Of a stretch of DNA of 64,000 bases, positions 9,238-59,391 are shown in pieces (position 1 is the first letter of the stretch; every line of letters begins with the position of its first letter). Position numbers and translations under genes: made by a program. The notes under the pieces are model-generated. The model worked only from the letters and a program-made list of their open reading frames with translations, did no database searches and was not told the origin of the DNA. Origin of the DNA: Moniliella sp. 'wahieum' (lineage: Eukaryota). The stretch lies in NCBI GenBank assembly GCA_003971905.1, contig RSEE01000001.1, positions 124,001 to 188,000 on the forward strand, in the 5' to 3' direction.

Positions 9238-10336
9238 GGCGGGCAGTGGGGGAGGGGTGGGGGTGGGGAGGAGGAGGGATGGTGGGGGCGTGTCTGAAGC
9301 GAGGCTTGGCAGCCGCCGCAAATCGCCAATCAGTCATCGGCATGCGTGTTCGCGTGCACTGAACGTTCACCTGAACGCTCAAACGTTCATCTTCAGCTGC
9401 CTCTCAGCCTGAGATCGCAGCCTCTCCTCTCGACTCCGATCCCAGCAGCCGCCAGCAGCAGCACGCCTCAGCCTCAGCCCCACCGCCGCACGCCGCCAGC
9501 ACGCCGCTCCAGCCGCAGCACGCCACAGCCTCCCACTCCCCAGGATACGGGAACCCTAGCGGCCCTGCCCACACACGGCCCTCATGCCCCATCCACGTTC
9601 AACCTCAAATACGCTCAACCCGTGATCGATAAGCAAAACCCAACACCACATATGCCCGCCCAAACATAAATAGAGAGAGCAGCTGCCTCGCCGGCATTGG
9701 CTTCGCCCAGTGCGGTTGCGACGGGCAGGGATGACTAGGGTATTCCGCTCAATCTAAATCCTATCCACAGTGGCGAGACACTATCCTTCGCATTCCGCAA
9801 GAAAAGTAAAAAAAAATCCTACTGAAAAAAGATGAGCACAAAAGTAACTTAAGGTGATGACCGAAGACGTCAGTGACCTATGGCCAATGATTAATGACCA
9901 GGGTCGACGGCAAGACGATGAAAGTGAGAGGCCGACGCGCTTTTCCACCTCAGAGAACACGGTCCCAACCACACGTTGCACACTTGTAAGGCCAATCTGA
10001 CGCTCTCTCTGATCGTAACATCTTAACCAGCTTGTCAAGCTTCTCACGGTCTATTGAAACACCCCATCCCCAAACCTCACACACCAATCGCATCGAGCGC
10101 CCGTAGCATCCATTAGAATGAAGGTAGTGTGCATATTGCATGAAGTGAACAAAAAACGGAACTGTTCATCCATGCAGTCTGAAGATAATAAAGACTGAAA
10201 AACAGAATGAGATCGAATAGGTGCAACCTGAAAACGGATACAAGGGAACACTTTTTTCATGAAAGGCTTGATGCGATCAACAAGTTGGGTGACCAAGCGC
10301 CAAACCGAGAGAAAAGAGAGAGGACTGAGGACTGAT

Positions 10337-12542
10337 TTAGGCCACCGACACGGTGGGCGTGATCATCCTCCTGCGAGTGTAGACCGTACCGGCCTCCACA
10401 TCCTCGTCCATATCCACGTTCTTGCCGTCGTTGCGCTCTCGGCCGGCTGCCAAGGTCTGGGCAAAGATCGAGCGTTCCCGCACCTCCTTGCCCTTGTACC
10501 ATAGAATGTAAATGGGGAAGATAATGAGGATCGAAGCAAAGGCCAGCAGAGTGGTGGCCCACTCGTACCCCATCTTTCGTACATTGGTACCGAGAACATG
10601 GCCGAAATGCCCGCGAGGAAATCACGCGCCAGCGCATTTCCACCACACGCACTCGCACTGTCGTCATGGTCAGCCAACAAAACACAACAACAAAGCCAGA
10701 CACGGGAACGTACCTGTAAGGACCGTAGGCGGCAATCATATAGTCAACAGTGGCAAAATAGATAGCGTAATTGGCCATCGAAATGAGCGCACTGAAAATT
10801 AGCGGTGCGATCCAGTGGGAATGAGGGGGACCCATGGAGGTCCAGGCAAAGCCGAATAGACCCAACGTCTCCCAAGGACAAAGGAAGAGGAGATATGTCA
10901 AACGAGCCTCGGGCGTGAGCGCGTTACGATCACGCTTCCTCTGCTTGAGCTCCCATCCAAACCGGGGCAGGTAGAGGCCCAAGCGATAACATAGCCAATG
11001 ATGACCGAAAGAAAGGCGAGGCCGACTTCGACGGTAGTGAAACTCCACTGGCCAAACACCAGTTCAAAGCTTTTGGAAAATAAAGATAAGCATGTCGCTA
11101 AACCCAGAAAGAAGGGAGCAGAAGAGCACAATTGGCTCCCGCACAAACATCTCAAATGGACGGATCCAATGCGTAGCCATCGACTTGAAGTTGATGCTAC
11201 CCTTGGCCTCGGTCGGACCCCAGATATTGGACTCGCCGGCACGACGACGACGACGGGCCTCACGGTCCAAGAGGATGGTGGAACGTGTCTCGGGCACAAT
11301 GAAAAAGTGAAGCAGCTGAGTCAGGCCATTGAAGCACAGCTGACTCCAGAAGTTCCAAATCAAAGGCACACCTGGGATACCAAGGAATCCTCCGATGAAC
11401 GCACCCCCTGACACACCAAAGCACGAGAGGAGCACCATGAATGCCAAAGCGTACTGCTGCTCGTCCGGCTCAAACAGATCAGCCACCACAGCCAGGGTGA
11501 CACCACCATTAGCCGTAAAGAGGCCACAGAAGAAACGAGAGACGACAATCGAACCAAAGTTGGGCGCCAAGGCAGCCAAAATGGTAAAGCCTTGGAGTCA
11601 AGAGAAAGTTAGCCGGTTGCTTCAAAACAGGACAAACAGGGTGGGCTCATATACGCACTGTTAACGAGGGTCAAAGACAATTGCAAGATTGGCTTCCTCC
11701 CAAATTCCTCAGACCATGGTGCCCACAGCTCACAGCCAAAACTGTAAGCCACCAGGTAAATCATCTGACCCACACGGGCCGCTTGTGCGCTGACATGGAA
11801 CTTTTCGACAATCCCAGGCACGGCATTGGAGTAGCAAGAAGTGTTGTAGTTCATCGAGACTTGAATCAGGGCGGTAAAAACAAGGGTCAACCACTTCTTC
11901 CAGGTGGGGAAAGAATATCCTGTAGCGAGATACCCAGCGCGTTCGGTAAGAACAATTTCCTTCTTCGTTGGGGCGTAACTGCGCCTCGCCCTCAATCGCC
12001 TTTTCAGCGTTGGACTTGAGCAGGTCGTTCTTGTTCTCGATCCGCTTGATTTCATGGGGATAGTAAGTCCGCATCCGGTCGCCTAGGCCAGGGTGACGGA
12101 TCTTGACACGTCCATCGGGATACTGGAAGGCAGTCAGAGCGGGGTCTTCCGTAGTCTCCTTTTGCTCGGGCTCCTTCTCGTCTGGGCTGTCGACCGAAGT
12201 TTGCGATCCATCTTCGTTGGATGGGGGGGTGGGAGTGCTAGCCTCTGGCTGGGACGGGTTTGGCACCTGAGCCATGTCGAGCGCCTCGGGTGGGGGGGCG
12301 CCTCGACTGCTCATGTCACCGGGACGAAGCAGGGCGGTGAGAGCAGCGGCAGGAATGCTGCGAGTGCGGCTCTTAGTGCGGGAGTGGGCATTGGTGAGCG
12401 CAGGACCTTCGTCGTCCGAGATGGCTGTCTCGTCAGCCGCAGAGGCAGGGGCGGCATTGGACAGAGCCGCGCGGGCTTGGGCAGCCGTAGTCTGGGACCC
12501 CGCTGACGCCCTATCGAACGGGCGTGGCTCGGTACTTGACAT
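10337..12542 (-). CDS. MFS transporter, DHA1 (drug/polyamine:H+ antiporter-like)
   Basis: WKKWL, WAPWSEEFGRKPILQLSL, FFIVPETRSTILL, WIRPFEMFVREPIV, PEARL, DYMIAAYGPY, SACGGNALARDFLAG. Introns ~11590-11655 and ~10655-10712. Confidence 0.92.
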
Positions 12543-13226
12543 GGGTACTGTGACTGTTGGTTAGGCGAGGGCGGATGGGGGTGGTGGGCAGTGCAGAAAT
12601 ATAAAACGGTGTCGTTCTTGAGAAAGGAGAATCGAAAAGAATATATAGCCACGCAGGGAAAAAAACGGCCGCGTAGAAAGAGCACCCGTCTTATAACGGG
12701 TGACGTATGACGCGTGACGTTGACGGACCCGCGCGTGTAAATCCAGGGCGTCTTCGTGCCGAAAAGTTCGATCACAGTGACGCCGACAGTTTCGCACAGG
12801 GGGGCTGTCACATGCCCCATGCAATGCGTCAAATATGACACCTCACCCACGCGCAGCAGGCCGGCGGAATGGCACACGAGGCGCCTTGGCAGTCGAAACT
12901 GGGCTCGAGCATTGCAACGCTTGCGGCAGTGTGACCCACCCCCCATCCGATCTGGAGGATCTGAATCTAACATCGGTGATGGCTGGCATGGAACATGGTC
13001 ACTGGATCGAGAGGACATGGCTGTTGGGCGTTGGGCCGGCCCACCTCCTACACGCTGCATCAGAGCAGCAAGTACCTGTTGGCCTGCGTGCTCCCGGTCA
13101 GCTGACGGACAGAATCAGGCCGGCGGGTCGGGGCCTGCCGGGGCCAGAACGCCCGCCGGGGCGGTTCTGGCCTGTTACATGTTATGCAAGTTACGGCCAC
13201 AGGAAACATACAGATGTAAACGTGGA

Positions 13227-15830
13227 CGTTGAACGTTGAACCAACGTTGAACGTACGTACGTTGAACGCTAAACGGTACTGGACCCTGTGGGATAGGTTG
13301 TCGACTATCGACTATCCACCATCCATTTTGTAATTGGCCAGTGTCACGGTCCTCTTAGCTAATCAGGGGAATCTTCTCACCGCTCTCCCCGCTGCTGAAG
13401 GAGGAGTGGAATGGAGGATGTGGTTCTGAGGAGAGGTACAGGAGGCTATGAGAAGGGTAGGGCCTTATATAGACGAGAGTACCGCGGAGCTGAGGAAGCT
13501 TCCGGGCGGATAAGAGGGGTGATGACTATCACGCAGGATGGCGTGATTGGGGCATCGCCCCAACGCCCGCCGATCCTGTTCTCCCTCCTCCTACCAGTGC
13601 ATCTTTGGCTTCCCTTGGTACTTGGTCTCACTCGTATCGCCCGACCCTTACAGCCAGAGTAGAAGAGAGAACCTCTCTCTCTGGTTTCAACACCAGAGTA
13701 GACGCCGGTCAGATCTCAGGCTGTTTTCGGTAAAACCACGGGAAGTGATGTGGAACTCAATATCAATGCTGTTCCTCCCACTCTTTTCACACTTTACTGC
13801 CAGCATCCTATTGGCTGGGGGACTACGGCTATTTCTTGACCGGCCTGTAGTGATTAAAACTAGTTCTAACTAGCTCTAACCTACTAGTCACTACCCGTTT
13901 TAACTGCCGGTTACCCACCCCCTCGATGTTCGCGCTCGCTCACAACAGCGGGTCGATGACGTCAGTGACCAGTGATTTATTGATTATCGATTAAATATTA
14001 AGCGCTAAGCCCAAGCCTAAGCCTTAGGCCCCTTCGGCCTTAAACTTTTAAGTGATCCATTACTTGCTTTACTGATTAATGACGTATGATGCATGATGCA
14101 TGATGCATGGTGCAGATGGGTGCGGTGACCGGTGACCGGTGATGTATGATGTTTGATGCATGATGCCTGCCCCGAGCAAAATAAACGCCTTCGAAAAAGT
14201 GAGTAACTGCTGTCACAAACTGTCGCCTACTGTTGCCCGCCCGGGACAAGGCGGATCCATAGAGCAACTGGTAAGCCCGGTAACGAATATTACCCATCAT
14301 GCATGCAACAGCCAGTTACCGGTTGCCGGCTACCGGTCACCGCACCAGCAACCCCAGGAACCGCCAAGAGTCAAATAATCGTCGGCGCGACCGCCACATG
14401 AAGGCTGCTGCTGCTGGTGACCGGTGGCCTGTGGGTGAGTACTCAGGCTCAGTTAACTGAGTGCGGGCGAGCTGTCTGGGGATGGTTCAACGTTCAACGT
14501 TCAACGTTGATTAATGATTCCACCCTCCCCCACCGACCGTGGGGAAAGGGGCTCGGCCAGAGCGCCCTGTGCGCGCAGCGTCAGGCGCGTCAGATCTCAG
14601 ACCGTCAGACCGCCACGCGTCAGGAACCACTCTGAGAATGGCGAGAAGGCGCTAAAATTAATATAAGGACACACCGAGCATCCCGCTGCTGCCTTCCCCT
14701 GATTGCATCCCCACCATCTCCCCTTTTAGTCATGCTCGCCTCCCACAGGTTTGCTAAGGCCATATATAGGTAGGCCTGGGGCCCAAGGGCCTAAGACTTA
14801 AGGCAAAGGTAAGCCACGGGGAAAGGCACCACAAAAGGAAGGCAAATGTCAAGAGCCCGAGAGGAACTGTGCCCAAAACGTAAAGTCGAACAAGGGAATA
14901 AACTTCGATACTACACAATGGGGAATGTATGGGACCGCATGGTTCTCAGATTTTGTTGGCAGGCCGGATTTCTCGTTTTGTCAGTGGCAAAAAATTGCCT
15001 GTATGTTTGTGTGGCCGAGACAGGCACACGCCAATAACGTATTCAATACCGCAGCCTCCACTAGCTCTTTGGAAGCAGGACTGAGCGCGCTGAAGCCTGC
15101 TGGACTTCTTATATCTCAAGCTTGAAGAGCTTGTGAAGCTTGAAGGTAGGATCGCACAGCCATAATGCATAACCCAAGTAGAAACTAGTACGTGGAGCTA
15201 GGTGGATAAGTTTAGAGGTTCTGGCACGTCTGCTTCATCATATGCACATGCATCATGCGCCATGCGCCATGCACCATCGATCATCAATCATTAATCATTG
15301 ATCATCAAATCAGTTGACTAGGAACTGCGCTGTGCCAGTTACTAGTTACTTCTCGATTTACTAGAAGGGCTCGCCTCTCTCGTGTGACATGCGCCACGTG
15401 ACGTATGAGCATACGATGCAGTTGGGATCATCGATCATCGATCAGAGGACTTGCAGGCTCCTGCAACGCTTCCGGTCCGGCATTGCTCGCTCCGCGGCCG
15501 GCGGTGTTTCATACGGAGCGCGGCTGGCAGTGGCTGTCGTACCGAGTTTTACATTTCCCGCCGAAGTGGTCACCGGTCACCGGTCACTGGTCATTAATCA
15601 TTTGTCCTCGATCCTCTCTGTTGCGCCATACGTGATGCGTGACGTTGTGTGACTTGCATGTGCAACAACTGTGTGTTTGTTTTAATGCTGGCCCGTTTTG
15701 GGGAAGTTCTTCAAGCTTCAAGCTCCAAGCTAACGTCACGCATCACGCGTCACGAGTCAAGCTAGTCAACCTTCAAATCTTCAAGCTACAAGTGAAGCTT
15801 CATGCACTTCATGCATCACTCATCATATGC
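13227..15830. repeat. Cluster of 7-bp (TNA + palindromic 4-mer) arrays
   Basis: Examples: TGAACGT at 13230; TGATGCA/TGACCGG at 14073-14163; TCAACGT at 14487; TCACCGG at 15570; TCAAGCT at 15711. Confidence 0.85.
13342..13652. mobile_element. Solo LTR (311 bp)
   Basis: Starts TGTCACGG and ends CCCTTACA. Flanked by an exact 5-bp direct repeat GCCAG (13337-13341 and 13653-13657). Internal TATA-like TTATATAG. Confidence 0.75.
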
Positions 15831-15989
15831 GCGACTAGCGCGCTGATGATTGGTTAGGGTCGCACCGCGTTCCCCTCCTTCTCTCATGTTGCGTTCAAGG
15901 GCGGACTACACCAACTGACAAGAAGCTATCTATAACTGTTTCCTCCTTGGACAGCAGTGCAATCGTTATCCTTAGCTTGGTAGCGTAGA

Positions 15990-16275
15990 TCTCCCTTCTT
16001 TATAAAATTGGAACGGTTTTTCTTCCCCCGCTGCGTAAAATTGTACATCAGCATGCCACCTGGCACGTTCCAGGCAGCCGCAGCCAGGCCGATGTATATG
16101 GGTGATAAAATTCGCCCCTCCAGCGGGGAACGGTGGCTACGGTGGCGAAGGTGGACCGGTGGAATGGTAGCTAAGGTGGACCGGTGGAACGGTGGCTAAG
16201 GTGGCGACAGCACCAAGCACACCAAGCTGGGGCGAAGCCCCAGCTGCCCGGGCCGTAGGCCCGGTGGTCTTCTAG
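15990..16275 (+). mobile_element. Non-autonomous mini-Helitron
   Basis: 5' end A|TCTCCCTTCTTTATAAAA; internal GGTGGCTAAGGTGG-type minisatellite; two GC hairpins; 3' end CTAG|T. Related copies at 42499, 45991 and 47332. Confidence 0.75.
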
Positions 16276-16512
16276 TACTTGTCAATTAACGGACAACCGC
16301 GGTTCTGGGCTCTCAGATCTCATTATGGTGTGACCGATTCATGGCGCTCACCCATTGATCGCCCAGTGTAGTGCTTCGCCTCGCCCTAGCCCCCATTCTT
16401 TCAGAAGGGAGTAGTGATTAAGTGATTAGTGATTTGAGTGGGTCATTTAGCTCATCGAGCGCATTTCGATCCTGTGCCACCTCTCGACCGTTGCATTTTG
16501 CAAAACGATCTC

Positions 16513-18400
16513 TGTGATGAAAATGTCACATTGGAGGCGAAGGTGAAGAAGGCCAGAGGACTAGGTAGAGAGTATGTAGCAATCGTTCGTGGGGAAGAGT
16601 CAAGAGCAGAGGGCATGGTACGAATCGGAACAACAGGGAAAGGTCGAGACGCTCGGGGACGAAGGAATTGGAAATGGGAGCCTGCGAGCTGCGCTACATC
16701 CGGTTTGGAAGCGAAAGGCGGGCGAGAGAGGGTCCTGAGCCCTGGCCGGCCTTACCTGCAAGCGTCTCCTCCCGTTTCCTAAACGGGTTTTGGCGCAAAC
16801 AAGCATGGTAATGTGGGGAGTATGCTAATGCATTATTCTTTCTTCGCTTACAGTGTATAACGATAACAAAAATGGCAAAAATGGAAGCGGTAATTACTGC
16901 ATACAGTGCGACTCGGAATCACTCGTAAAGTCTGTGGTGCCGTGGAACACGGCACTCTCCGACGAACAGTCTATTACAAGAACGCTGGCCATCAGCAGAG
17001 AGTGGGCACAAAATTACAAGTGAAGCGAAGAACGGAGCGGTGGGAGAGGCAGGACACCAAGTGTAGAGAAGGAGGACGGAAAAGGGCGAGCGCGCGCGCA
17101 AGCGCGAAGAAGTATCGGGCATGAACTGATCTATAGTGCCTCTGAGCAATGGCGCCAGCCTCTATTAGTGTCACCCCACGTCACAACAGCCCCCCCCCGC
17201 CACCTGTCAGCTTGCCTAGGAATGCCGTGAGGACGAGGGGAGGTACGGGCGCGGCGGCTTGTCCATTGCAGATTGGGAGGCGCGGCGGAAGGTCAATACT
17301 TAGCCTCCACCGTTAAAGAACAGAGAGCCACGCTTCCCATGCAGGTACTCGTGCATACAGCTCGCGGCCATCAAAGTGGAGCAGCACGCACGTTGTGTCG
17401 CTGGAGGCTCGGACAACGCGATAGGGGCCCTCCTACTTGGCCGTTAGTGCGCCAAAAGTCTGGCAGCGTTTTACGACGCCAACGGAGCGCTTGACCAAGC
17501 AGCCGGGCGGGAAGTGGATACGTTATACCCGCGGGGATGAAGTACGCGTGGCGGCGATGCTGCTCTGCAGCTCGCGCAGACGCTCAGCACTGATGAAGTG
17601 GTCCTCCTGTACGGAGAAGAGAGGTTGGGTTGGACTTGCGTCAGGGATGTGTGTGCTTGCACCATCGGAAACGTGTTGGATGCGGCGCTCAAAGAAGATG
17701 GTAGCGGGGGCGGTATGGTCAATGTGGCGACAGAGCCTCTCAGGGACGGACATTGTGGGCGTGCACCAAAAAGGCATCGAGCACTGCTGGCCAACACCCA
17801 ATTTGGAGCAGAGAGAGGAACGGAGGGTAGTGCATAACCTTTTCCAAGCTCGAGACTTCTCTTATCGACCCCCGGCAAGGTCAAGAAGGCCTGGATAACT
17901 GGATAACGATACCGCCGAAGCTGCGGCGGCTGACCCCAAATAGAATGGAGCGCACCTGGGACAAACCGTGCCAGTTGGCGCTTATCCACGATCCTACAGA
18001 CATTCAATCTGCGGGCAGAGGACGCGAATATGGGAGTCCAGACCAATTTCGGGAGTTTAGTGCTCCCAACTGCGATCAAGCTAATAGATCAAGAAGCATA
18101 TGATAAAGTCGAGCTGCCGTTCATTTTCCACATCTTATCGCTCAGCACTCCTACTGAGAAGTCTCTGCTAATACGGAAGTGGGGATGTTTGATTATCGAT
18201 TATCATGAGGCAGCAGAGGGGGGTGGTGATGACGCGCGTCAGCATGACACGAGCATTGTATTTATTGGAAAAGCATGGAAAGGTCCGCATTTATCCGCGG
18301 GCGAAAGGGAAGTGTGTCGCCAAAAGGTCATGACCGCGTGGAAACAAGGGCAGGGGTTTTTAAAACACCTTGTGGCATGCCACAGGCATGTTCCCTGCTC
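16513..18400 (-). mobile_element. Decayed Ty3/gypsy retrotransposon remnant (RT and integrase fragments, PPT, probable 3' LTR)
   Basis: Minus strand: MPQG-LKTPA..FHAVM near 18330-18380 (RT motif, frameshifted). FPPGCLV...LTAK*EGPYRVVRA..TCVLLHFDGREL near 17350-17520 (integrase GPY/F region). G-run PPT then TGTTGTGA starting at 17188. Possible LTR end TCATCACA at 16513. Confidence 0.65.
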
Positions 18401-18892
18401 CCCACAGGTTATTTACGGTTGCTTCTGTTCTCCCACCACCCTGCTTTGAGCTGACCGTCGCAGCCGAATTCTGCCTCTGCCCTTCACGCGCCCTCCATTA
18501 TTGGTAGACAACTACTCAGCTGCCTGTTGGCTGTGGACTCAAAAAACCTCAGTCTGAGTGGCTGACTCTGGCGGCGAGAAAAGAAATCCGGCTGGCAACA
18601 GCGGTAACGGTAACCGGGATCTTGCGCGGCAAATACGCTTGTTTTTGTCGCCAATCACTTATCCTCGCAGCTTTTGCCGCCCATTGCTTGCCATAAGGTC
18701 AGCGTTGGTGTTGGCAGTATCAGCCAGTCCATTTTCCCCGCGGCATCCAGGATGCGACCGTTGTCGCAGCCGTATAACCCGTCGCCACCCCGTTCGCCAC
18801 CCCGTTCGCCCCGGGCTGCATCCTCTAACCATCATTCCCAGACCGGCTTGCAGCTCACACGGCCACTTCTCTTGTCCTCCAGCCACTTTGAT

Positions 18893-43959: not shown

Positions 43960-45990
43960 GATGTTGGACAAGGCACTGTTGATGGTGGATCTAGTGGGGG
44001 AGGCGCCGAAGAGAGCGTGGACTCTTGACCACCATCAGCAAAACGTGCTGTCTAGCCGACATGCTAATGGATTCGACAATTTTTACCCAGTGGCACTGGC
44101 GTGACTTTGTGCGTCGCTTGCGGGATCTTGATCGACATCTTTTCTGGATCATTTGCCTGCGCGCTTTCACACGTGATATGCCGCTGTCTCTCAGGGACCG
44201 TCAGGATGCAGGCGGGGGGGCGATGCCAGATTGGTGGTGGGGGGGGGGGGCTCGTCCACGTACACAGCTCGTCCATTTCGGCTACCTGACAACCTAGCTT
44301 TTGTTGTTGACGGTGCGGGTGGAACTGGACCTGCGATACTGCTGGGTCCGCGAGAGGGGCTCGCACGAGCATAATTGCCTGGACGGGCTGTTGCACTTAC
44401 TCTGGTGGAACGGTGGCGAGGGATGGTGGTGGGGTGTGTGTGGAAAGAGGCAGGACCAGGGGGTCTGGCTGGCTCTTGTCAAGTGTGGCTGCAGTGCGGA
44501 GGTAGAGCAGATTGCGCCACTCACATGCGGGGGGTTCCATACAACGCACTAGGCAAGTCTTTTGCCCCTGGCCGGATTTGGCTAGCCAGGAGCCAAACTG
44601 AGGATGCACTGAGGCGCTGTTGCTGCAGGGAACAGGCTGCGCCCAACATTCTCTGCACCAGGCAGTGTACGCGCGGGCGCTGCCAGGGGGGGCGCCCAGG
44701 GGGTTAAGGCCTAAGGCCTAAGGGTACAATCCATTGGAGATCCTGAGGTCGACTAGCTCTCACGGTGGTTACGCACTTGGCTGATGGTGGGTCCGAGCGG
44801 GGCTAGGGACAAAGAAAGACTTCTCGGCGTATAGCAGAGGTGGCTGCCAGTGTGGCAAGGCTGTGTAGCATAAAGGAAGAACGGGGGATAGAAGGGAAAC
44901 CAGGGGGCGAGACGGTTTTGGGTACGGGCAACCTAAAAGGTAAAAGGGCACCGGGCGACTATCGTCTCCAGATTGAATCTGACCCCATGACCAACCTGGG
45001 GATGGGAATAGGAAGGCGACAGGCGCACATAGGCTTCGTCAGGCTTGCCAGCTCGTCTTCGCCCGTGACCGGCAGTAGGCAACTGTCGCTCGATGGTGAG
45101 CGAATAAGGCTACGTAGTGTCCTGGACAGATCGAAGCAGCCAGGCCAACAGTGAAAGTTGAGTCGCACATTCAAACGTTCGCCGTTGGTACACCGGCAAT
45201 GTATCGACACCGAGGTACTGGAGACTGGAGCCCTAGCTCCTCCAACTCTTGCTTCAACTCTTTTCGGCTGCAAGAATGTCCAGCACTGCCAGCCATTGGA
45301 TATGCACCGGATATGTCGTTGATACCCGTACTCGTCTTTTGACACAGAGGGACGCCCGACGTCACCAAGATCACACCGGGCACACCGGGTGGCGTCCAAT
45401 AGCCCAGCTGCAACACTGGACACTGCAGCAGGCATCATTCGTGCACCCTGCGCTCCGGCGCGCAAGCACGATCCCAGCTGGTTCCAACCGGCAACCGCTG
45501 GCCACCATCTCTACTGTGGCCCACATCTGACATTAATATGTCAGATGTGGCCTCCCTTGAATTTTGCACCTTCAGCCCCTCTCTGGATTGCCCCCTGGGT
45601 CTCCCACGCAAAATGGCGATGTGGAAGATGCTTTTGGATGGAGGACAACGCTGAAACGTGCGTTGCCCACAGTCGGCTGGTCCGTCTACCGAACCCGAAG
45701 CGACAGCGGATCCTCAGTCCGGATCCAAGCCAGAGCGGCGATCAACTCATCGGCGCGCACACAAGTCTGATGCCTCACATAAAGACGCACTCCTTTGCAG
45801 TCTCCGGCTCTGTATTGAGGATCTGTCAGAAACAATAATACGTCGCCACGGCCCGATTGCTAGCAATATGTTCGCGCCCTTTACGAACCCGTTCATTGCC
45901 GTCATCAACATCATCCAGTTGTGGTTACCAAAAAGTATATGCGGCGAGAGCTCGCCGAACTGGTCCTGTCACTGATTGAGATTATTACGC

Positions 45991-46066
45991 TGCGTCGCCA
46001 CCTTAGCCACCGTTCCACGCTGGAACCATTCCACGCTGGAGAGGGAACATAATATCTTTTCACCCG
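45991..46066 (-). mobile_element. Internal fragment of the mini-Helitron family (no terminal hairpin)
   Basis: Reverse complement contains GGGTGA...CTCCAGCG...GGAACGGTGGCTAAGGTGGCGAC, as at 16100-16208. Confidence 0.6.
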
Positions 46067-47000
46067 TCCCACATTGACTATGCGTGATAATAACTCAGAT
46101 GACCTCCACTCGCAATGGGGTGGATGGATTAACGCGAATCCCACTTCACCATCCGGCTCGCGCGTGTGCCAAGCGAGACGACTGTGATTTAACTATACAA
46201 GCGCGTATGTTGGCACGGTCACCTTTATCTCTAGCCTTTATCGCGGGAGCTACTGGGGGCATCGGTACTTCCTGGGCCTCTGACGCGACGCGACGTGGCT
46301 CTGCACATCGCCTTTATTTGCCAGACGGCCAGCTAATGATTCCAATGACAATCTTCCGGAGCATGGGACAGGTCGCACACGCAACACAGCGTTCATTAAG
46401 CAAAAGGTTGGACTTTTGCGTGAAGGAACAGTTGAAGTGCAAGCTGGTCCGCAAATGTAAAACCTGTCGTTACCCGTGTTCATCGTCGAACTGGTTGGTT
46501 CGCTCTGGTCCGTTCGACGGGGTCATTCTGCGACCACCGACAATTGATCTGGTCCAATGAATATCCGGCCGAGTCGGAACACTGCGATGAAGGACGTATA
46601 TACTACACGGACCAGTGGGGCCCAAGCTCCGGTCATCCAACACCTTACTGTTGTCGGAACCAACGAGGAATGGGTCATACGTTGGCTCATGAGTACACAC
46701 ACCTCATGGAACAAGAAGAAGATGGTGAAGAAGTGTTAAGTCGCGATACGACAGCCTAACCTCTGGGGAGACAGTCTCGCTTGACCGATTTCGGTTTCAG
46801 ACACCATCTCTCAAACGCGCCTGTCCGACTATGGATGTATCAGGACGAACGACTCTCGATGATCTCGTCGGTTTGCTCGGAGAACCCAACAGACTTTTCA
46901 TGGCTTTCGTTTGCGGGGTTAAAGCAATGTGAAGGGCCAACAAAAGTCTATCTTCAGCGGGGCTGCACCAGTCGTCCCTGCGTGCCCTGTACTCTGATGA

Positions 47001-47230
47001 GACCTGGAGTCCGGATTGTCCTCGAGGGTGATGCAATCGCACTGATGGTGGTGGTGATGGTCTAAGCCAACCAGCAACGCCTACTGAGGAACATCAAACA
47101 GCGAGTCGCCACCAGGGGCTAAGCTGCGGAACAAGGAAAAACAGGAGAGAAAAACAACGGAACTCCTAGGCCTGAGGAGGAACTGAAGGGACATTGGCCA
47201 AAGCACGAGCCACCCGGTGGCTCAACATAC
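47001..47230 (+). repeat. Dispersed diverged repeat / pseudogene fragment, copy 1 (paralogue at 58601)
   Basis: Shares ACCTGGAGTCC..GTCCTCGAGGG..GTGGTGGTGATGGT..AGTCGCCA..AGGGGCTA..ACGGAACTCCTAGGC..GAGCCACCC..CGGTGGCTCAACA with 58601-58832. Confidence 0.8.
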
Positions 47231-47331
47231 TCAAGCAGAACTAGCCGCAGGATGGATGCCTGATGAACCAAACCCTCATCAGTGGGCACAATGCTGTGCC
47301 GCATGGCCTGCCTTTTGGTCCATATATGAAA

Positions 47332-47548
47332 CGAGGAGACCACCGGGCCTACGGCCCGGTCTGCTGCGTCGCCACCGTAGCCACCGGTCCCCCGTCGCCA
47401 CCTTAGCCACCGTTCCCCCCTTCGCCACCGTAGTTATAATATCACCGATACGCGCTGGCTGGGGTGGCTGGGGTGGCTGGCTGCGCCCCGGTGGCTTACG
47501 CAATGCTGATGTAAAAGAGTGGTGCACACCCCGTTTGGGATTCTAATA
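47332..47548 (-). mobile_element. Diverged mini-Helitron copy (minus strand)
   Basis: Reverse complement has TACATCAGCAT...GGTGATA, the GGTGGCTAAGGTGGCGAC minisatellite, hairpin CCGGGCCGTAGGCCCGG and end TGGTCTCCTCG|T (CTAG mutated). Confidence 0.7.
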
Positions 47549-47549
47549 A

Positions 47550-47775
47550 CCCTGTCCCAGCCTTAAGCTCTGTCAATGAAATGGACGTGGTCTAGAGAGG
47601 GTACGGGACCGGATGGCGTGAGCCGGAGGGTCCTGATATCCTGGCGATCCCCCTGGTCCCTTGACCCTGGTGGCGCCCCCAAGTAACCCCCGCAAGATGA
47701 ACGGTTAGGTTTAGACGTAGCGTTCCCCCTGTCCCAGCCTTAAGCTCTGTCAATGAAATGGACGTGGTCTAGAGA
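47550..47775. mobile_element. A-B-A split direct repeat (possible tyrosine-recombinase retroelement terminus)
   Basis: Exact 49-bp direct repeat (47550-47598 = 47727-47775) around a 128-bp B segment; other copies at 4927, 31075 and 49380. Confidence 0.55.
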
Positions 47776-48065
47776 TGAGAGGTTCCATTTACCTGACGTT
47801 AAATCTTGGCCACATCAACTGCCGATGTTCCCCTGGCTAATCTGAAGACGCATGTCCCCGTAGAGCACACCCTTCCGTGCGGCGACTATGCCAAATTGAT
47901 TCCCTGCCCTCGGCCAGCTACCATGAGCGCGTATAGGAAGCACGCGTGTTGACAGGTGGTTCTGGTAGCATTCCTAGCAGAAGACACGAAATGGTGTGGT
48001 GGGATTTTGAAACGACGCAAAGTTTCACATGTATCCGGCAGTTGGCCCCCCGCGCTGCACATCAT

Positions 48066-48133
48066 TGACACCAACGACCTCTTTTGCGCCGTCGCTGACA
48101 TCAACGACCTCTTTTTCGACGTCGCTGACATCA
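48066..48133. repeat. 30-bp tandem repeat (~2.3 copies)
   Basis: tgacaccaacgacctcttttgcgccgtcgc / tgacatcaacgacctctttttcgacgtcgc / tgacatca. Confidence 0.85.
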
Positions 48134-49379
48134 TTTCCCTCAAAACCATGCGAACACGTCGCCGATGTCAGCCCCTGGACATCCGCTGATATTTTAAATC
48201 TATTTCGTTGATCCGCTGTGTATTTATCGAGAGACCCCCTGCTTTTTCCACCTGTACTTAAGTGCGTGGCATCCCCTTGGCGACGCCACTTACAAGCCGT
48301 CGCTGCACTAGTTGCAATGATGCATCAGTTCTTGATATAATGATGAACGTATTAAGGTGAGTATTTTATGGATGAACAATATACGTACTCTCGATTATAT
48401 CTGCGGATGGCCTCTGACGACGCTGATGCTCACTATATGATCTGCTGACCCCTTCCTCTTCCCAAAACGCATCCGCGCGACAAGAATTGCCCCCACGCTA
48501 AAGTCGAAGTCGGTTGGCCTAAATGAGGCCACCAAGTTTCCGGCACCTTTGCGACCACTGTCGCCCCGTTTCACCACTGCTTGCTTTGTCCTTATTTTCC
48601 GTTGCGCCTGCGGCAACGAACCCCTCTTTTGACATGTCTTTCCTTTCTACACCCCTATTGTGCCCGTTTTCCCTTTTAGATATACTCTGTACCCCTGGTT
48701 ATGGTGGGGATCCTTTCCCCAACACCTCCCATTCTGGCCCCTTCTCGCCTTTCCTGCCCGACTCCTCTGCCCGCTTCCAGCCAATTGATTCAGTACAGAG
48801 GCAATTCGTCTACCAGCTTTCCATTAGCCCACGAGCCGCTTCGAGTCCCCATACCAACTTATCACTTGGGTTCCTTTCCAGACGCAGCGTCAACAGCCGC
48901 CCCTGTTTAGTCCCAACTCTGGCAGTGTTTGTTCTCCATATTGCCTCTACCGGTTCCCAACAAGTCCTGGAGGCTTCAGACACGTTACTACGGTTCAAGT
49001 CAGTGCGTACGCCGCCTTTCCACACGTGAAGCTGTCTCCGCTCCACCCCCAAAGGCTTCTTCTTGTCCCTACCTCCGCTCGGATTCACCAGCTACAGCTC
49101 TTCAAGCCAGAAACCACCGTGAGTTGTCCTTCCGTGTCTCCTAAGGGTTTTTGTACCCCACAAACCTGGGTGAGCCCCCTGACGGGCCCGCCCGTGACTG
49201 TTAGCTTTTGCGGGCAGTGCCCCAAGGTTCTGGAGGCTTGAAGGGAGATCATCACCCTGAAAACAGTAGTGTCATTCTAAACGAGGAGAGTCGCTCTGTG
49301 TGGGGGGAAAGAATGTCTTTTCCCCGAGAAGAGGTATATGTGACGGGCAAAATTATTTAGAACCGCAAAACGTATATAT

Positions 49380-49409
49380 CCCTGTCCCAGCCTTAAGCTC
49401 TGTCAATGA
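49380..49409. repeat. A-segment copy of the split-repeat family
   Basis: CCCTGTCCCAGCCTTAAGCTCTGTCAATGA, starting at the same boundary as the 47550 copy. Confidence 0.85.
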
Positions 49410-49820
49410 GATCAGGATTAAGCTAAGAGACTGGATGATTCCTCACGGGAATGAGCAGTTCCATGCGATACCGTCGGATATATATGTCACAACCCCTGGC
49501 ATCCTGATGGACGTCCGTGACGAAAAGTTTCTAGTATACGAGACGAAATACACCAGTATGGTCACAGCCGGAGGGAATAGGAGGGGAGTGAAAGGTAAAT
49601 GTGTTTGTGGGAGAGGTGGCTGAGGCACGACAGAGAGTGAGGTTGTGTGTACCCCTTCACCCTCGATTTCCCTACCCCCACATTGTGTATTATCTTTGAA
49701 GGGCAGGTTATTAAGGTTATTGAACCAGAGAGGAAGGGCAAGTGGGGCGCTCTTGCTGTATTTGGGGGCTTGTTACTAACGGAACGATGCCATGACATAA
49801 ACTATGCACCCCTGCGTAAT

Positions 49821-49916
49821 GGTCGATAGCTTCAGTTGGTCAGAGCGTGGTACTAATATGTCTTGCCTGGAGTGTTGGTAATGCCAAGGTCATGAGTTCA
49901 AGCCTCATATTGACCA
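49821..49916 (+). tRNA. tRNA-Ile(AAT) with canonical intron
   Basis: Acceptor GGTCGAT/ATTGACC, D loop AGTTGGTCA, anticodon arm TGGTA-CTAATA..TGCCA, T arm ATGAG-TTCAAGC-CTCAT, downstream T7 terminator. D-stem start slightly irregular (possible indel). Confidence 0.88.
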
Positions 49917-50258
49917 CATATCCTTTTTTTGCTTGTTCTCTTCACTGATGGCTTGGATCAAGGTCTTGCGAGCTTTTCCTCCCTGTTCTGCTGACAGGAT
50001 TATAGGATTGCTGAGAAAAGGCCCTGCAGGCACGTATCAACCACCAAAAGATCAATGGATTATCCAGACCATTGAGAGTGCTGGGGTGGCGAGCCGCCGT
50101 GGGCGGGTACATGTGTGCTAGAGGAACAGGAAGAGAAGAGAGGTTGCCCACAGAGCAGGATCAAATGGGTGAAGGAAGCTGATGCAACAACGAAGACAGC
50201 TGCAAGAACGCAGCTGGTATGGTTGCCAGCGGTAGCCGATGTGGTTCCCAATCCCGCA

Positions 50259-50808
50259 TTAGGCTGAATTCGCATTGTCCCCCGCTGCTTTACGGCGGCG
50301 ATAGTCCTCTGCAGACCCAAAGATCCAAGGCTTGAGGATGGAGAACTGGCGACTGCCCGAATAGTCGGCAACGTGCTTTCCATCTTCGTAGAGGCGCATC
50401 GAGGGATAAGCAAGCACATTTTCTTGGTCGCAAATATCCCCCTGGACTGTACAATCAACACGGGCCATGTAGAAGGCACTGGAGTCTTCCAAGTGGGCAC
50501 TGATCTCGCTTAGGTCCTTCCACGTAGGCATGAAGTTTTTGCAGTCTGTACACCGAGCAGAGGTTAGTTCAGAAACTCGATCATCGTCAAGGACAACATA
50601 CGAGGGCAATAGGGGCTGTAAAATTCCACAAACCACATGCCGTGAGCTGTCTTGGTGGCAAAATCGGCCGCTGTCAAGGAGCGCAGGCCTGATTCATCAC
50701 TCTGAACGGGAGCGGGGCGGGGGCAGGGGCTGGCACTGGTGCGGGGGATGAAGAAACAAGAAGAGCACTGGCCAGAGCGGCAGCAGTGGCAAGGGCAGGG
50801 AAGCGCAT
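50259..50808 (-). CDS. Secreted thioredoxin/PDI-like protein (CPHC active site, Eps1-like), intron 50546-50601
   Basis: Signal peptide MRFPALATAAALASALLVSS. Splicing GTATGT...CTAAC...CAG gives WFVEFYSPYCPHCKNFMPTW, then ARVDCTVQGDICDQENVLAYPSMRLY. Confidence 0.85.
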
Positions 50809-53338: not shown

Positions 53339-54599
53339 GGTGGTGGGGGGGTCAAAAGTAAGCGAAGACTTGTGATGAGAGAAGAACGACGGCGGGGCCC
53401 GAAAGGGGTCGGGATTATATACCTACACGCCAGATGGCCTGGACATGAGCGGGAGGGCAGATGGCACACGACAGAGCTCAGTATGGACAGCTCGACATGT
53501 GACATGTGAAGCTTGAAGCGTCAAACCAGCACACGGTAAAGAAGGCGTGGCATGATGCATGACAAGGCAGATGATGTGCAGTGGGGTCAGATGGAGCGGT
53601 TGTGAACCTTGGGGCAACCCCTGCAAACTGAGGGTTGTGCGCCCGTTCAGAGAGATCCGCATTCTTCCAGCCGCCAGTAGCCTAGGACCAGGGGGTGTCG
53701 GCCTGAGGCCTGAGGATGTGCAGGTGGGGAGCTGGGGATGCCGAGTGCGCTGAGTTCATCAACAGCAGCCCAGGTCATGCCGTGGCATGGGAAATCGTAC
53801 CTGAGTCCGGCCTGAGGCCTGAGGCCTGGGCCTGAAGCTAGACCCGGACGTTGGCTGCCGCGGAGAGGGGCCAAAGTGGGATGGTCTGGGGATGGCAAGG
53901 GTGCGCTGTCAAGCGCTGGGGGCTGTACACTGGCTGGATGCCCATGTGATAGCGTGGTTTGAACGCAACATTGCTCGACTTTTGACTTTGAAAGTTGCAG
54001 TGCGGCGATAGTAAGACAAACCACCACTCCTTGGGTTCTTGGAATCCATGGCACTACCTTAGGCCTTAGGCCTTATAGTCAACCTAGTCACTGTCCATGC
54101 ACCCACGTCCGTAGCGATATTGATTGGATGTGTGTTGTGTACGTACGCTGAACCTTAACGTACTAACATTGATGCTTTGAAGCTTGAACCATGGACGCAC
54201 GGACCTTGTGGACCTTGGAGCTTTTTTGGACTTTGAAGAGTATAGGCTTTTGAAAAGGACGCTGAGCTGCTCTCTTGTAACGAAAGTGGCAGCGCAATCA
54301 TATCTGTTTGGTAAGTTTTGCAGGATACGCGGCGTGTGTCGGGGACTTTACGAAACGTCTTCTGATCAAAACGAGAGAATAGATAGTTGTTGTTCACAGA
54401 AAACGGATGCGGATGTTCAGAAGACTGAAGCGAACAAAGGAAGAAAATGGGCTAACTCAACGCGACTCGGGACTCATCACGTGTTGTCACAGTGGCCTAG
54501 TGGCCCCCCGTTGTAGTCGGACCTTTTTGGAAAGAGAAGGGAAACGCGGCAACCCAAAAACAATGCCATAACTCTTGCACGAAAAAATGTGTTGAGTAT

Positions 54600-54663
54600 T
54601 ACGTTGAACGTTGAACGTGTTGAACGTTGAACGTTGAACGTGTTGAACGTTGATCGTTGAACG
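54600..54663. repeat. (TGAACGT)n heptamer array
   Basis: acgttgaacgttgaacgtgttgaacgttgaacgttgaacgtgttgaacgttgatcgttgaacg. Confidence 0.95.
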
Positions 54664-57789: not shown

Positions 57790-58600
57790 ACGTCGAGCAG
57801 ACTTTGGCAATCCATACTGGTAGGGTATGGGTGTACAGCAGCATGCGTACTACGTAGTCTTTTGAGTTGGCAGACCATGGCCCATTCAACGATTATCGAT
57901 TATCGATTACGGGTAACGGAGAAAACATACACAACGGTGGTGGTAAGGTCCTGAGGAGTAGCTGGCTAGCCGAGGCAATATAGATTTTGTTGAGTCTCCC
58001 CCTAGCCCAGGAGCTGCGTCGCAGTCTGCGCTAGATCCACGACAGAGGACAACTTTGCGCTCTTGAGGATATCTCCGAAGCGCGAAGGTGCGTTTAGGTG
58101 CCCCGCAGTACATAGTATAACACGGGATATCAGTACTGTCAGAATGGAAGAGCAAAGGGGACGAGCGGAGGATAGCGGCATAGAAAAAAAACAAGATAGC
58201 TTAGTTTGAGCCAATCTGGCTCGACACATCGAGAGCATTCTGGCCCTTGTGCAAGCGAATGCCGGCCTTTTCTTCTTACCATCAGGGTAGATGAGGGGAG
58301 CGCAACTGTTTACAATAAAAACAAAATGGGCTTACGGGGAAGCGCCAGAGCCTTAGGGCGGTGGAAGGTCAGGTTGTGGCGCTCCTTCTTCTCATCCCCT
58401 GATTGTCTTTGATTGTCTTTGAGGGCCGCCTTCTTGGCAGCAATAGTAAGAGCCCCCGACTTCTTCTCAGCTGCCACACACACACGATCATTGGGTGGAA
58501 CAGTCGAGCGCAAGTCGGCCCGACGCAAAGCCAACCGTCGCAGCGTTCAATGCACACCGTGTGTGTGAGCATATGCCCCGACAACCACCCCCGGTGAAAA

Positions 58601-58832
58601 ACCTGGAGTCCTGATGGTCCTCGAGGGCAATGCAGTCGCGCTAGTAGTGGTGGTGATGGTGGTCAATGCTGCGCCTACTAGTACAGGGTGACATCAGCCA
58701 GCCAGTCGCCATTAGGGGCTAGGCGGAACTAGGGAAACACGGGAGCGAGAAAACCACGGAACTCCTAGGCTTGGGAGGGGGGCTGAAAGGGGACCTTTGC
58801 CCACTGGAGCCACCCACACGGTGGCTCAACAC
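58601..58832 (+). repeat. Dispersed diverged repeat / pseudogene fragment, copy 2 (paralogue at 47001)
   Basis: Collinear matches to 47001-47230. Confidence 0.8.
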
Positions 58833-59391
58833 ACTAGTTGGCCTCTCAGATGAGAATGAATGAGGATAAGCGATAATCGATAATAGGAGTTCAAACTCGC
58901 GGTTGGCTGATTGGGCCGATAGTACTGTTGCTGGCATGTTGGTCGCTTCATTTCGACCTGCTCCCCCGGCTTCACCGTCAGCGAGACCGATACCGGGGTG
59001 GACCAGCAGGCCTACGATATGCACGTATGCTGCCGGTTAGAGGCTGCGCCCAGACTCGGGGGCTCAATGGATGACGTCATGTGTGGTGGCTTATTGCCGC
59101 AGCGGTTGACTAGTGACTCCACGTATGCAACATTGAACGTTGACGCGTGACGCAGAACGCGTGTTGCGTCGCAGCACTATCCGCAGCTCGCAGCCCACAG
59201 ACCCTCCGACCTCCGCTTCGCTCTCCCTCGACCATCCATGGCATTCTGCTTCCCTATATCTGAAACGCCGCTGGCCTGAGATCGGAAAACCTCATCTTCC
59301 GCGCCATCCGTGCTGACATTCACATCAATGATCTGCCCTTTAGCAGCAGCAAAACCAAGGACGCCCTCGCGCCGATCGCCAGCCTACTCGG

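Follow-up and report, generated by a model that had tools for sequence, protein, structure and literature searches.

The window analyzed here (the whole 64-kb stretch of DNA) comes from a smut-related fungus, and its gene-flanking DNA is dotted with 7-base repeats that resemble the scars of one recurring event. Clusters of them lie upstream of the MFS gene and of those for alpha-tubulin, thioredoxin, and ADH, and the DNA that holds the repeats is non-coding and mostly gene-upstream. An earlier, sequence-only reading had described them as T-N-A triplets separated by palindromic tetramers (pal4) with a period of 7, in which N is free and the arrays are intergenic. All arrays cited in that reading were found where it had placed them, and the rule is correct: TNA-pal4-TNA with the same N in both triplets occurs 103 times in the window, compared with 2.4 expected, making the pattern genuine and strong. 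Approximately 100 instances in 64 kb represent a high density for a stretch that is almost without dispersed repeats. The main regions and arrays are listed below; coordinates are those of the window, and no strand is assigned to the features themselves.

12498..18637, first hot region, intergenic and upstream of the MFS gene, with 31 TNA-pal4-TNA in 6.1 kb
36539..42833, second hot intergenic region, with 25 TNA-pal4-TNA in 6.3 kb
43474..50294, cold non-coding region, with 2 TNA-pal4-TNA in 6.8 kb; contains dispersed repeat families
30381..30419, (AGCT-TCA) x 5.6, the longest of the perfect arrays, immediately upstream of the minus-strand alpha-tubulin ORFs
54601..54663, composite array of (TGA-ACGT) units; two of its steps are +9 (GTTGAAC-GT-GTTGAAC at 54610 and 54633), because of which Tandem Repeats Finder (TRF) gives periods of 16 and 23
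14079..14166, in-phase TGA chain in which TGCA spacers give way to CCGG and then to TG+NN; in the last part, TGATG is fixed and the last 2 nt vary (TA, TT, CA, CC)
38877..39103, cluster of adjoining arrays with TCA/TGA in common and the spacers TCGA, GATC, ACGT, GGCC, AGCT, and TGCA
53494..53519, mixed in-phase chain CATG-TGA-CATG-TGA-AGCT-TGA-AGC, with one TNA and two spacers

Counts against shuffled DNA and at other spacings, which the sequence-only reading had proposed, bear out the rule. We identified 61 perfect period-7 tandem arrays of at least two copies in the window, compared with 2.6 in 20 dinucleotide shuffles, while perfect period-8 arrays numbered 8 vs 0.8. The repeat unit is TNA plus a palindromic tetramer in 34 of the 61 period-7 arrays, and all 34 quasi-palindromic period-7 units are of the TNA type; chains of at least two strict units were found 32 times, with 0.48 expected. 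The signal is specific for spacing, triplet, and period. Palindromic spacers of 2 nt (10 vs 9.8) or 6 nt (2 vs 0.7) between TNAs are not enriched in the window, nor are the other symmetric triplets ANT, CNG, or GNC followed by a palindromic tetramer (9 vs 13.7), and self-complementary repeat units are in excess at period 7 only (34 vs 12.8), with no enrichment at periods 4, 5, 6, 8, and 9. A natural-DNA control, metagenome contigs totaling 528 kb, gave 0.73 and 0.61 occurrences of the two elementary forms per 64 kb, compared with 21 and 25 in the window, with AGCT spacers left out on both sides of the comparison. As TNA-pal4-TNA, 15 of the 16 palindromic tetramers are present, as had been claimed; AATT, which had been reported as not seen, occurs once in the form AATT-TGA-AATT (31887-31897). 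Most arrays have three units or fewer, and nothing is constant in them except the T and A flanking N and the spacing.

The arrays are restricted to non-coding DNA. TNA-pal4-TNA has a density of 0.04 per kb in confident coding sequence (23.5 kb) and of approximately 2.5 per kb elsewhere. The earlier statement that none are coding is nearly right in that 1 of the 103 instances is confidently coding (21648) and one more, at 29228, lies within codons of alpha-tubulin (LNVDL); neither looks like more than chance. The non-coding DNA is itself unevenly struck. The cold region is nearly empty. Its GC content is 0.54 and its TNA density 49.8 per kb, and the hot regions have similar values (0.52-0.54 and 47-58 per kb).

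The junctions within the arrays have a simpler anatomy than the rule itself, and the period-7 rule is a by-product of that simpler event, i.e., the duplication of a 7-bp segment, abTNAxy, with TNA at its center. Most often, the product is the 12-mer TNAxy-y'x'-TNAxy or its mirror form, in which a 5-bp direct repeat encloses a 2-nt filler that is the reverse complement of the adjoining end. Among the 12-bp period-7 runs with a TNA-pal4 unit, 26 of 31 have this structure, while runs in phase (0,2), consisting of exactly TNA-pal4-TNA, are a minority of 6. When all TNAxy-NN-TNAxy 12-mers on both strands were considered, NN was the reverse complement of xy in 123 of 171, compared with a chance level of approximately 1/16. 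The two mirror forms are balanced, with 24 cases in which the downstream pair is repeated and 27 in which the upstream pair is repeated (0.2 and 0.1, respectively, in shuffles), and single 12-bp events were found at non-repeated sites. Representative scars are as follows:

12708..12719, elementary scar TGACG-CG-TGACG within an older TGACG-NN chain (12701-12725)
15798..15813, CTTCATG-CA-CTTCATG, both TNA-centered 7-mers whole, 2 palindromic nt, period 9
37910..37924, GATGACC-G-GATGACC, both 7-mers whole, 1 palindromic nt, period 8
16413..16434, AGTGATT-A-AGTGATT-AGTGATT, a 1-nt palindromic junction plus a plain 7-bp duplication; TNA central, 7-mer non-palindromic
42025..42044, GCTGAGC-GCTCAG-GCTGAGC, both 7-mers whole, 6 palindromic nt
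9358..9376, ACTGAAC-GTTCA-CCTGAAC, 5 palindromic nt, one mismatch between the 7-mer copies

As these scars illustrate, the palindromic junctions have several lengths. In the rarer products, both 7-mers are intact and are separated by 0, 1, 2, 4, or 6 palindromic nucleotides. Whole copies of abTNAxy with 2 palindromic nt between them were found 7 times (0.0 in shuffles) and with 1 nt 5 times (0.0), the latter at 4 loci, one of which was counted on both strands; the 4-nt and 6-nt forms were found once each, and the locus at 9358, which holds the first coordinate of the sequence-only reading, has a 5-nt filler. The window thus holds junction variants of +8, +9, +11, and +13 in addition to the +7 step. 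TNA is central in these products and in plain duplications alike: for the 2-nt-filler form, 7 cases are centered on TNA and 3 on any other sequence, with TNA-centered sites making up just 2,879 of the 63,993 sites in the window; plain 7-bp duplications of non-palindromic TNA heptamers number 9 vs 0.12 in shuffles; and of 13 TNA-containing perfect arrays of period 7 with a non-palindromic unit, 7 have TNA at the exact center of the duplicated frame, where chance predicts 1 in 7. Non-palindromic spacers have one fixed and one variable half (cgTA/cgCG/cgTT at 12701; TGATG followed by TA, TT, CA, or CC at 14140), and in-phase chains with differing spacers have the same TNA in all units. As in the excision footprint of a hairpin-forming cut-and-paste transposon, in which the target-site duplication (TSD) is retained, the window shows a duplication of fixed length together with P-type junction nucleotides, consistent with a putative hairpin.

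Based on this anatomy, we suggest, with a probability of roughly 0.6, that a cut-and-paste DNA transposon, or else some transposase-like activity, left the arrays behind as excision scars that accumulated. Insertion of the element would generate a 7-bp TSD, nnTNAnn, symmetric about N, and the element would leave through hairpins on both flanks, as in hAT, Transib/RAG, and Mutator-like elements. In the available text of PMC5499845, hairpins in the flanking DNA are described for hAT, Transib, RAG, and MULE transposition, with footprints left by end joining, and according to that of PMC2175297, Artemis:DNA-PKcs cuts hairpins open mostly at 2 nt 3' of the tip, which leaves 3' overhangs of 4 nt that are inverted repeats, the P nucleotides. 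A nick at the same +2 position here would leave 3' overhangs of 4 nt, each self-complementary, with the sequence xyy'x' on the left flank and b'a'ab on the right flank. If these were aligned in register and each strand was ligated, the top strand would read abTNAxy-y'x'-TNAxy and the bottom strand would give the mirror form, abTNA-b'a'-abTNAxy; replication would part the two strands, with a net gain of exactly 7 bp and a junction tetramer that is palindromic by construction. Each scar would bring a new TNA, and repeated strikes by re-insertion at the new TNA sites could build arrays. At a palindromic site, the two overhangs would be fully complementary, and each further cycle would therefore add a perfect unit. 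Replication slippage may lengthen existing arrays further. Preference for promoters is a trait of many cut-and-paste elements and, together with selection against +7 frameshifts, fits the distribution of the arrays. The model requires a later mutation or a nested event for the 16 TNA-pal4-TNA (1.7 expected) in which neither flanking pair is repeated.

Several observations do not favor an excised transposon. No transposase domain was detected in the 138 of 196 ORFs of at least 110 aa in the 64-kb window that were scanned (E≤1e-5) or in 48 smaller ORFs between 43.4 and 50.3 kb (E≤1e-3), and a search of the window for terminal-inverted-repeat elements with a flanking duplication of 3 or 5 bp gave none, the TSD considered here being 7 bp; the window is too small for this absence to count. 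The usual target consensus of hAT elements is nTnnnnAn, in which T and A are not adjacent to the center, and Hermes-type hAT cleavage has a one-nucleotide offset, for which exact palindromes are not expected. The scars are also unusually dense and very uniform, as picked up by a pattern search that is blind to messy scars. In rice, excision footprints are heterogeneous, unlike the uniform fungal scars, and in the available text of PMC4423477, plain TSD-TSD junctions followed 8 of 94 excisions, while the others carried either a deletion (18 bp on average) or filler (13 bp on average). We found no description of the TNA-pal4 scar or array pattern in the literature and no report of footprints accumulating into tandem arrays.

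The same anatomy would result from a host process without a mobile element, and the agent is the sole difference between the two explanations. A TNA-specific nuclease with two-fold symmetry, e.g., a domesticated transposase, could make 7-nt staggered breaks in open promoter DNA, and fill-in followed by turn-around or hairpin synthesis would give identical +7 products. The lack of a recognizable element or transposase in the 64-kb window, the uniformity of the products, and the clustering of events near promoters all agree with this explanation; nevertheless, we regard it as rather unlikely, since a target duplication with flank hairpins is the output of one insertion-excision cycle, and we know of no repair route that hairpins a filled-in blunt end. 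That the cutting agent is specifically a hairpin-forming transposase kept by the host, which cuts promoter DNA open at TNA time and again and closes it in +7 steps, appears less probable still. If so, the genome would have a built-in generator of heritable variation in promoter length and spacing, and the arrays would serve regulation or nucleosome exclusion as tunable tracts.

Ordinary replication slippage is another candidate, in which heptamer microsatellites with self-complementary units would form slipped hairpins and expand more readily. This explanation draws on the findings that tandem duplications of all periods exceed shuffles in the window and that the two arrays of at least five units that were folded as single strands beat shuffles by far (z, −4.6 and −5.6). 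Three-unit arrays, in contrast, do not outdo shuffles in folding, the enrichment of self-complementary units is confined to period 7 among the periods compared, TNA alone works while the better-pairing CNG and GNC do not, and chains with different spacers keep a common phase and TNA. Slippage could neither give rise to the 12-mer where no repeat existed before nor place 1, 2, 4, or 6 palindromic nt between whole 7-mers, and we give it little credence as the origin; it probably does extend arrays once they exist. A microsatellite that grows by whole units without a preferred word is at odds with the single 12-bp events, the TNA requirement, and the +8, +9, +11, and +13 variants. The sequence-only reading had proposed a signal for a dimeric or polymerizing factor or for chromatin, with the footprint of an unusual mutational process as its alternative. 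Arrays built and kept by selection as such sites or as nucleosome-excluding DNA would account for their mostly gene-upstream location and near absence from the 6.8-kb cold region, which is non-coding and similar in composition, and some units contain TGAC or TGAT, which are bZIP-like half-sites. Yet, a protein cannot read "any palindromic tetramer", and the elementary forms are duplication junctions rather than sites. Nor does a binding signal explain the 12-mer with filler in 26 of 31 runs, the variants with 1, 2, 4, or 6 nt between 7-mers, the half-fixed non-palindromic spacers, the small size of most arrays, or the shuffle-like folding of three-unit arrays. An array of sites for a dimeric factor was rejected in that no half-site word is conserved. 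We therefore consider selection very unlikely as the origin, although the arrays may have been co-opted later as a signal, and it is the mutational alternative that the duplication-junction anatomy supports. The suggestion that heptameric repeats in Ustilago maydis are a special case was not confirmed, the term "heptanucleotide" being absent from the smut-fungus literature searched. Finally, a conserved gene appears to carry single-base indels in the assembly, and two or more of these lie in short homopolymer runs, in line with an assembly or sequencing artifact. The arrays are non-homopolymeric, diverse, short, and embedded in unique sequence; moreover, they avoid coding DNA and obey an exact symmetry rule that, to our knowledge, no read-error process yields, making an artifact extremely improbable.

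Among known systems, PIF/Harbinger and IS5-type elements have the target consensus TNA/TWA, i.e., the same target word, symmetric about N. The TSD of these elements is 3 bp in the available text of PMC12730594, while the duplicated segment in the fungus measures 7 bp, of which 5 bp can be seen in the main product. A PIF/Harbinger footprint, with only 3 bp repeated, was rejected on the grounds that the repeat reaches 2 nt past TNA in 26 of 31 runs and that the variants repeat whole 7-mers. Closer in length are hAT7 of Pucciniales and Kyakuja of Laccaria bicolor, basidiomycete DNA transposons for which the same text gives 7-bp TSDs (PMC12730594), matching the length suggested here; they belong to another subphylum, the window yielded no such element, and the likeness lies in host group and TSD length.

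The usual TSDs of hAT (8 bp), Transib (5 bp), and MULE (8-10 bp) elements differ from the 7 bp observed here. The likeness to the footprints of hAT, Transib, and Mutator-like elements consists of a TSD kept on both sides, flank hairpins, and end-joining footprints, as far as these are covered in the available text of PMC5499845. In V(D)J recombination, P nucleotides from hairpins opened at +2 form a 4-nt inverted repeat (PMC2175297, in the part available), which is the form of the array tetramer xyy'x', and array junction lengths matching other opening positions are also present. The fungal window, by contrast, is without a lymphocyte-type system, no recombination signal sequences were seen in it, and a counterpart of Artemis:DNA-PKcs is putative; V(D)J joining makes no 7-bp duplication, as the fungal event does. 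The heptamers of bacteria (cyanobacterial STRR and Xanthomonas GGGAATC; PMC4692102) also have a period of 7, are intergenic, and are sometimes near-palindromic with a free center base. They differ in that each genome has one or a few words, often with long hairpin arms, whereas here any spacer occurs and only TNA is constant, and the fungal junction variants point to an origin by duplication plus hairpin.

Tandem Repeats Finder (TRF) reported dozens of period-7 arrays in the window, and 61 perfect period-7 arrays with two or more copies were counted versus 2.6 in dinucleotide shuffles, while the same count at period 8 gave 8 versus 0.8. In 34 of the 61 perfect arrays, the unit is, in some rotation, TNA plus a palindromic tetramer, and all quasi-palindromic units of these arrays are of this kind. 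Self-complementary units were in excess at period 7 only (34 versus 12.8 for letter-shuffled units), with no excess at periods 4, 5, 6, 8, and 9 in the window. Chains with at least two strict units of this type numbered 32 versus 0.48 expected, and two TNA trinucleotides with identical N separated by a palindromic tetramer (TNA-pal4-TNA) were found 103 times versus 2.4 expected. In the window, TNA pairs with a palindromic 2-nt (10 versus 9.8) or 6-nt spacer (2 versus 0.7) were not enriched, and neither were instances with ANT, CNG, or GNC substituted for TNA (9 versus 13.7). These counts bear out the rule of TNA and palindromic tetramers with a period of 7 that the sequence-only reading had put forward, including the enrichment of 4-nt spacing over other spacings for which a check had been proposed. 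Its tally of spacers needs one correction: 15 types of palindromic tetramer do serve as spacer in TNA-pal4-TNA, but AATT, the one reported as unseen, is present once, as AATT-TGA-AATT at 31887.

The ends of period-7 runs are non-random. The commonest run length is exactly 12 bp (31 of the 128 period-7 runs of at least 10 bp), and 26 of these 31 runs read TNAxy-y'x'-TNAxy or the strand mirror y'x'TNA-xy-y'x'TNA, in which y'x' is the reverse complement of xy. Without pre-selecting palindromes, both strands together have 171 12-mers of the form TNAxy-NN-TNAxy, of which 123 have an NN that is reverse-complementary to xy. Sorting by the flanking pair that is repeated gave the following classes.

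TNA-f-TNA instances in the window versus shuffles
Palindromic spacer, only downstream pair repeated: 24 versus 0.2
Palindromic spacer, only upstream pair repeated: 27 versus 0.1
Palindromic spacer, both pairs repeated (within arrays): 36 versus 0.0
Palindromic spacer, neither pair repeated: 16 versus 1.7
Non-palindromic spacer, both pairs repeated (plain 7-bp duplication): 9 versus 0.12

Non-palindromic spacers in in-phase chains have one constant half and one that varies, as in TGACG followed by TA, CG, or TT and TGATG followed by TA, TT, CA, or CC; where spacers differ within a chain, TNA and the phase are common to all units.

To define the duplicated segment, we scanned for abTNAxy followed by m reverse-complement nucleotides and by a copy of the 7-mer from which t nucleotides were trimmed. 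With m = 2 and t = 2, the main form, 123 instances were found versus 0.56 expected. Both 7-mers were whole in seven instances with m = 2 (versus 0.0; for example, CTTCATG-CA-CTTCATG at 15798), in five instances at four loci with m = 1 (versus 0.0; for example, GATGACC-G-GATGACC at 37910), and in one instance each with m = 4 and m = 6 (the latter GCTGAGC-GCTCAG-GCTGAGC at 42025); a 5-nt junction with one mismatch lies at 9358-9376. These whole-7-mer variants account for the odd TRF periods of 8, 9, 16, and 23. The whole-7-mer form with m = 2 was centered on TNA seven times versus three times otherwise, with TNA-centered positions making up 2,879 of 63,993 in the window, and of the perfect 7-bp duplications that are non-palindromic and include TNA, 13 in all, 7 have TNA at the exact center of the duplicated frame. 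The duplicated segment is 7 bp with TNA at its center. A minor class comprises perfect 10-bp palindromes, TNAxy-y'x'-TN'A with N complemented (15 versus 4 with either remaining base; among them those at 14436, 16826, 37891, 42027, 48318, and 51062), which may be products with long palindromic (P) junctions or flips of N within arrays.

The window DNA is fungal, with Pfam matches to alpha-tubulin, CCT/TCP-1, COG6, TrkH, MFS, thioredoxin, zinc-ADH, Gpi1, and an F-box protein. One CCT4 exon shares 83-85% identity with Tilletia species and 84% with Malassezia (search in the "longer" length class), and a GRR1-like ORF matched only two relatives, at 52-55%; the host is therefore a thinly sampled member or relative of Ustilaginomycotina. 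In the alpha-tubulin gene on the minus strand, the frame shifts twice within ~100 bases at 29150-29330, at apparent single-base losses in short homopolymer runs, and the protein text on either side of the shift positions falls in different frames. Similarly, the COG6 ORFs at 25712-26368, 26211-26858, and 26842-27444 overlap each other in different frames. The shifts suggest either pseudogenes or indel errors left over from long-read assembly, and many apparent introns may be frameshifts instead.

Coding sequence was called by codon usage, with the Pfam-positive ORFs as the training set for the score. The 23.5 kb of confident coding sequence holds 1 of the 103 TNA-pal4-TNA instances, i.e., 0.04 per kb versus ~2.5 per kb outside, and a second instance within a gene lies in alpha-tubulin codons at 29228. 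Thus, the claim that coding regions lack the arrays holds as a strong depletion, with these two exceptions. Instances cluster as follows.

TNA-pal4-TNA clusters in the window
12.5-16.5 kb
30-32 kb
37.5-39.6 kb
41.5-42.3 kb
50.5-51.6 kb
53.4-55.3 kb
57.8-59.2 kb

Most clusters lie upstream of genes, namely those for MFS, tubulin, thioredoxin, and ADH, in agreement with the sequence-only reading. By contrast with these hot regions, the 6.8-kb non-coding stretch 43474-50294 has only two instances at similar GC content and TNA density; the ORFs scanned there had no Pfam match and its coding-score segments are weak. This stretch may be younger DNA or closed chromatin.

We use the term scar for a putative 7-bp duplication product with P junction nucleotides. 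The 7-bp duplication is two-fold symmetric around a free central base and the palindromic junctions have several lengths, as should be left behind when a hairpin-forming cut-and-paste element inserts and excises once; we propose this as the origin of the scars. Hairpins on flanking DNA, which end joining turns into footprints, are described for hAT, Transib, RAG, and MULE (PMC5499845), and the main position at which Artemis:DNA-PKcs is described to open hairpins lies 2 nt 3' of the tip, giving 4-nt inverted-repeat 3' overhangs (PMC2175297). Opening at +2 on the flanks ...abTNAxy and abTNAxy... would give the overhangs xyy'x' and b'a'ab, with the partner strands recessed by an equal two nucleotides. 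If the overhangs were then placed in register and each strand ligated, the top strand would read abTNAxy-y'x'-TNAxy and the bottom strand abTNA-b'a'-abTNAxy; this in-register ligation, which we infer, would yield both mirror forms in similar numbers (24 and 27 were counted) and a net gain of exactly 7 bp. Each scar would also bring a new TNA, and at a palindromic site the overhangs would be complementary, such that every further cycle would add a perfect unit. The ~51 arrays have 36 inner units, which corresponds to an average of 1.7 events per array. On a rough estimate, this exceeds the outcome of uniform targeting of TNA sites, and it is therefore likely that scarred sites are preferred, that slippage contributes, or both.

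As the sole origin of the arrays, slippage of hairpin-prone microsatellites fails: among the arrays folded, those of at least five units do fold better than shuffles (z of −4.6 and −5.6), but two three-unit arrays do not, and slippage does not account for 12-bp events that stand alone, for the junction variants, for the need for TNA, or for palindromy being confined to period 7. A grammar of binding sites, as the sequence-only reading had considered, also fails as an origin because T, A, and the spacing are the only constants and the units are duplication junctions, although arrays could possibly have been co-opted for binding at a later stage. An assembly or sequencing artefact is unlikely, even though the assembly apparently contains single-base indels in genes. 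Other target-site duplications (TSDs) were also considered. A 3-bp TSD (TNA) with leftover element ends as spacer was ruled out because each family would then have one constant spacer and because the repeat runs past TNA, and a symmetric 5-bp TSD (bTNAx) was ruled out on paper because its outcome is period 5. An asymmetric 5-bp TSD (TNAxy) with two P nucleotides was rejected as well; the main product fits, but the whole-7-mer variants and a two-fold symmetric enzyme do not.

Several observations count against a transposon. No transposase domain was found by Pfam in the window ORFs scanned, and a window search for inverted-end elements flanked by duplications of 3 or 5 bp yielded only array artefacts. 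The near lack of dispersed repeats in the window and the uniformity of the scars relative to rice excision sites also weigh against a transposon. The 16 instances with neither flank repeated count against excision, as does the high scar density against a transposon; by our own count, events exceed 1 per kb overall, and the hottest intergenic region has ~5 per kb. The hAT target consensus does not match a TNA-centered site, and Hermes cleavage, which is offset by one nucleotide, does not match the scars. A host nuclease acting by identical chemistry without a transposon could also be responsible.

Dispersed repeats are almost lacking in the window, with self-BLAST giving three short matches, which belong to one repeat family. 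The repeats noted are the following.

Repeats in the window other than the heptamer arrays
31075-31149, 47511-47585, 47688-47762, 49376-49412, and 5026-5062: five copies (70-100% identical) of a dispersed repeat with the core CCCTGTCCCAGCCTTAAGCTCTGTCAATGA
16122-16276, 42508-42564, and 47331-47421 (inverted): second repeat family
48066-48133: tandem repeat outside the heptamer rule, 30 bp x 2.3
42851-42916: tandem repeat outside the heptamer rule, 18 bp x 3.7
20130-20186: tandem repeat outside the heptamer rule, 28 bp x 2.0

The CCCTGTCCCAGCCTTAAGCTCTGTCAATGA repeat, which may represent a long terminal repeat end, is concentrated in the scar-poor region. The second family has a 9-bp-periodic GGTGG-rich part and two GC-rich hairpins; on alignment, its copies share the right end ...GGTGGTCTTCTAGT and differ at their left ends.

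Our data comprise the 64-kb window, 121 unrelated metagenome loci as natural-DNA controls, and published papers. Scanning metagenomes for (TCAAGCT)x3 gave at least 121 loci on contigs of very different GC content. Among the matches listed, 60 loci were 2.5 kb or longer, and in these the density of other spacers was no more than 0.54 per kb versus ~1.4 in the window, and no orthologous locus was obtained. One eukaryote contig (L063:1-20021), with tandem AAA_11/UvrD-like helicase genes ~5.5 kb apart, has several other TNA plus palindromic tetramer heptamer repeats, e.g., TGAGATC and TAACCGG, and may represent a second organism with the same process.

If scars do arise by insertion and excision, a single enzymatic cycle, in which 7 bp of target are duplicated, hairpins on the flanks are opened at +2, and the ends are joined in register, would explain a seemingly complex intergenic grammar, and a class of tandem repeats would be made and lengthened by transposon excision rather than polymerase slippage. 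The scars would then record, without experiment, both target choice (nnTNAnn, mostly in gene-upstream DNA) and the position at which host repair enzymes open hairpins, and they would often change the length of promoters by 7 bp. Arrays in other genomes could serve to trace the former activity of hairpin-forming transposons, including where no elements are left.

Among known systems, rice excision sites are heterogeneous, with 8 of 94 being plain TSD-TSD and the others having deletions or filler (PMC4423477), whereas the window scars are far more uniform, a uniformity to be read in light of a pattern scan that is blind to messy scars. In Basidiomycota, 7-bp target duplications, the length inferred for the window scars, are described for hAT7 of Pucciniales and Kyakuja of Laccaria (PMC12730594, the supplement of which gives consensus sequences without a TSD list for hAT7). 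A full-text literature search on the pattern, literal array strings included, found no description of it. Target duplication, flank hairpins, and P nucleotides are already known; as far as searched, what is new is one stereotyped form of scar, dense enough that quasi-palindromic heptamer arrays have built up as a family in promoter regions.
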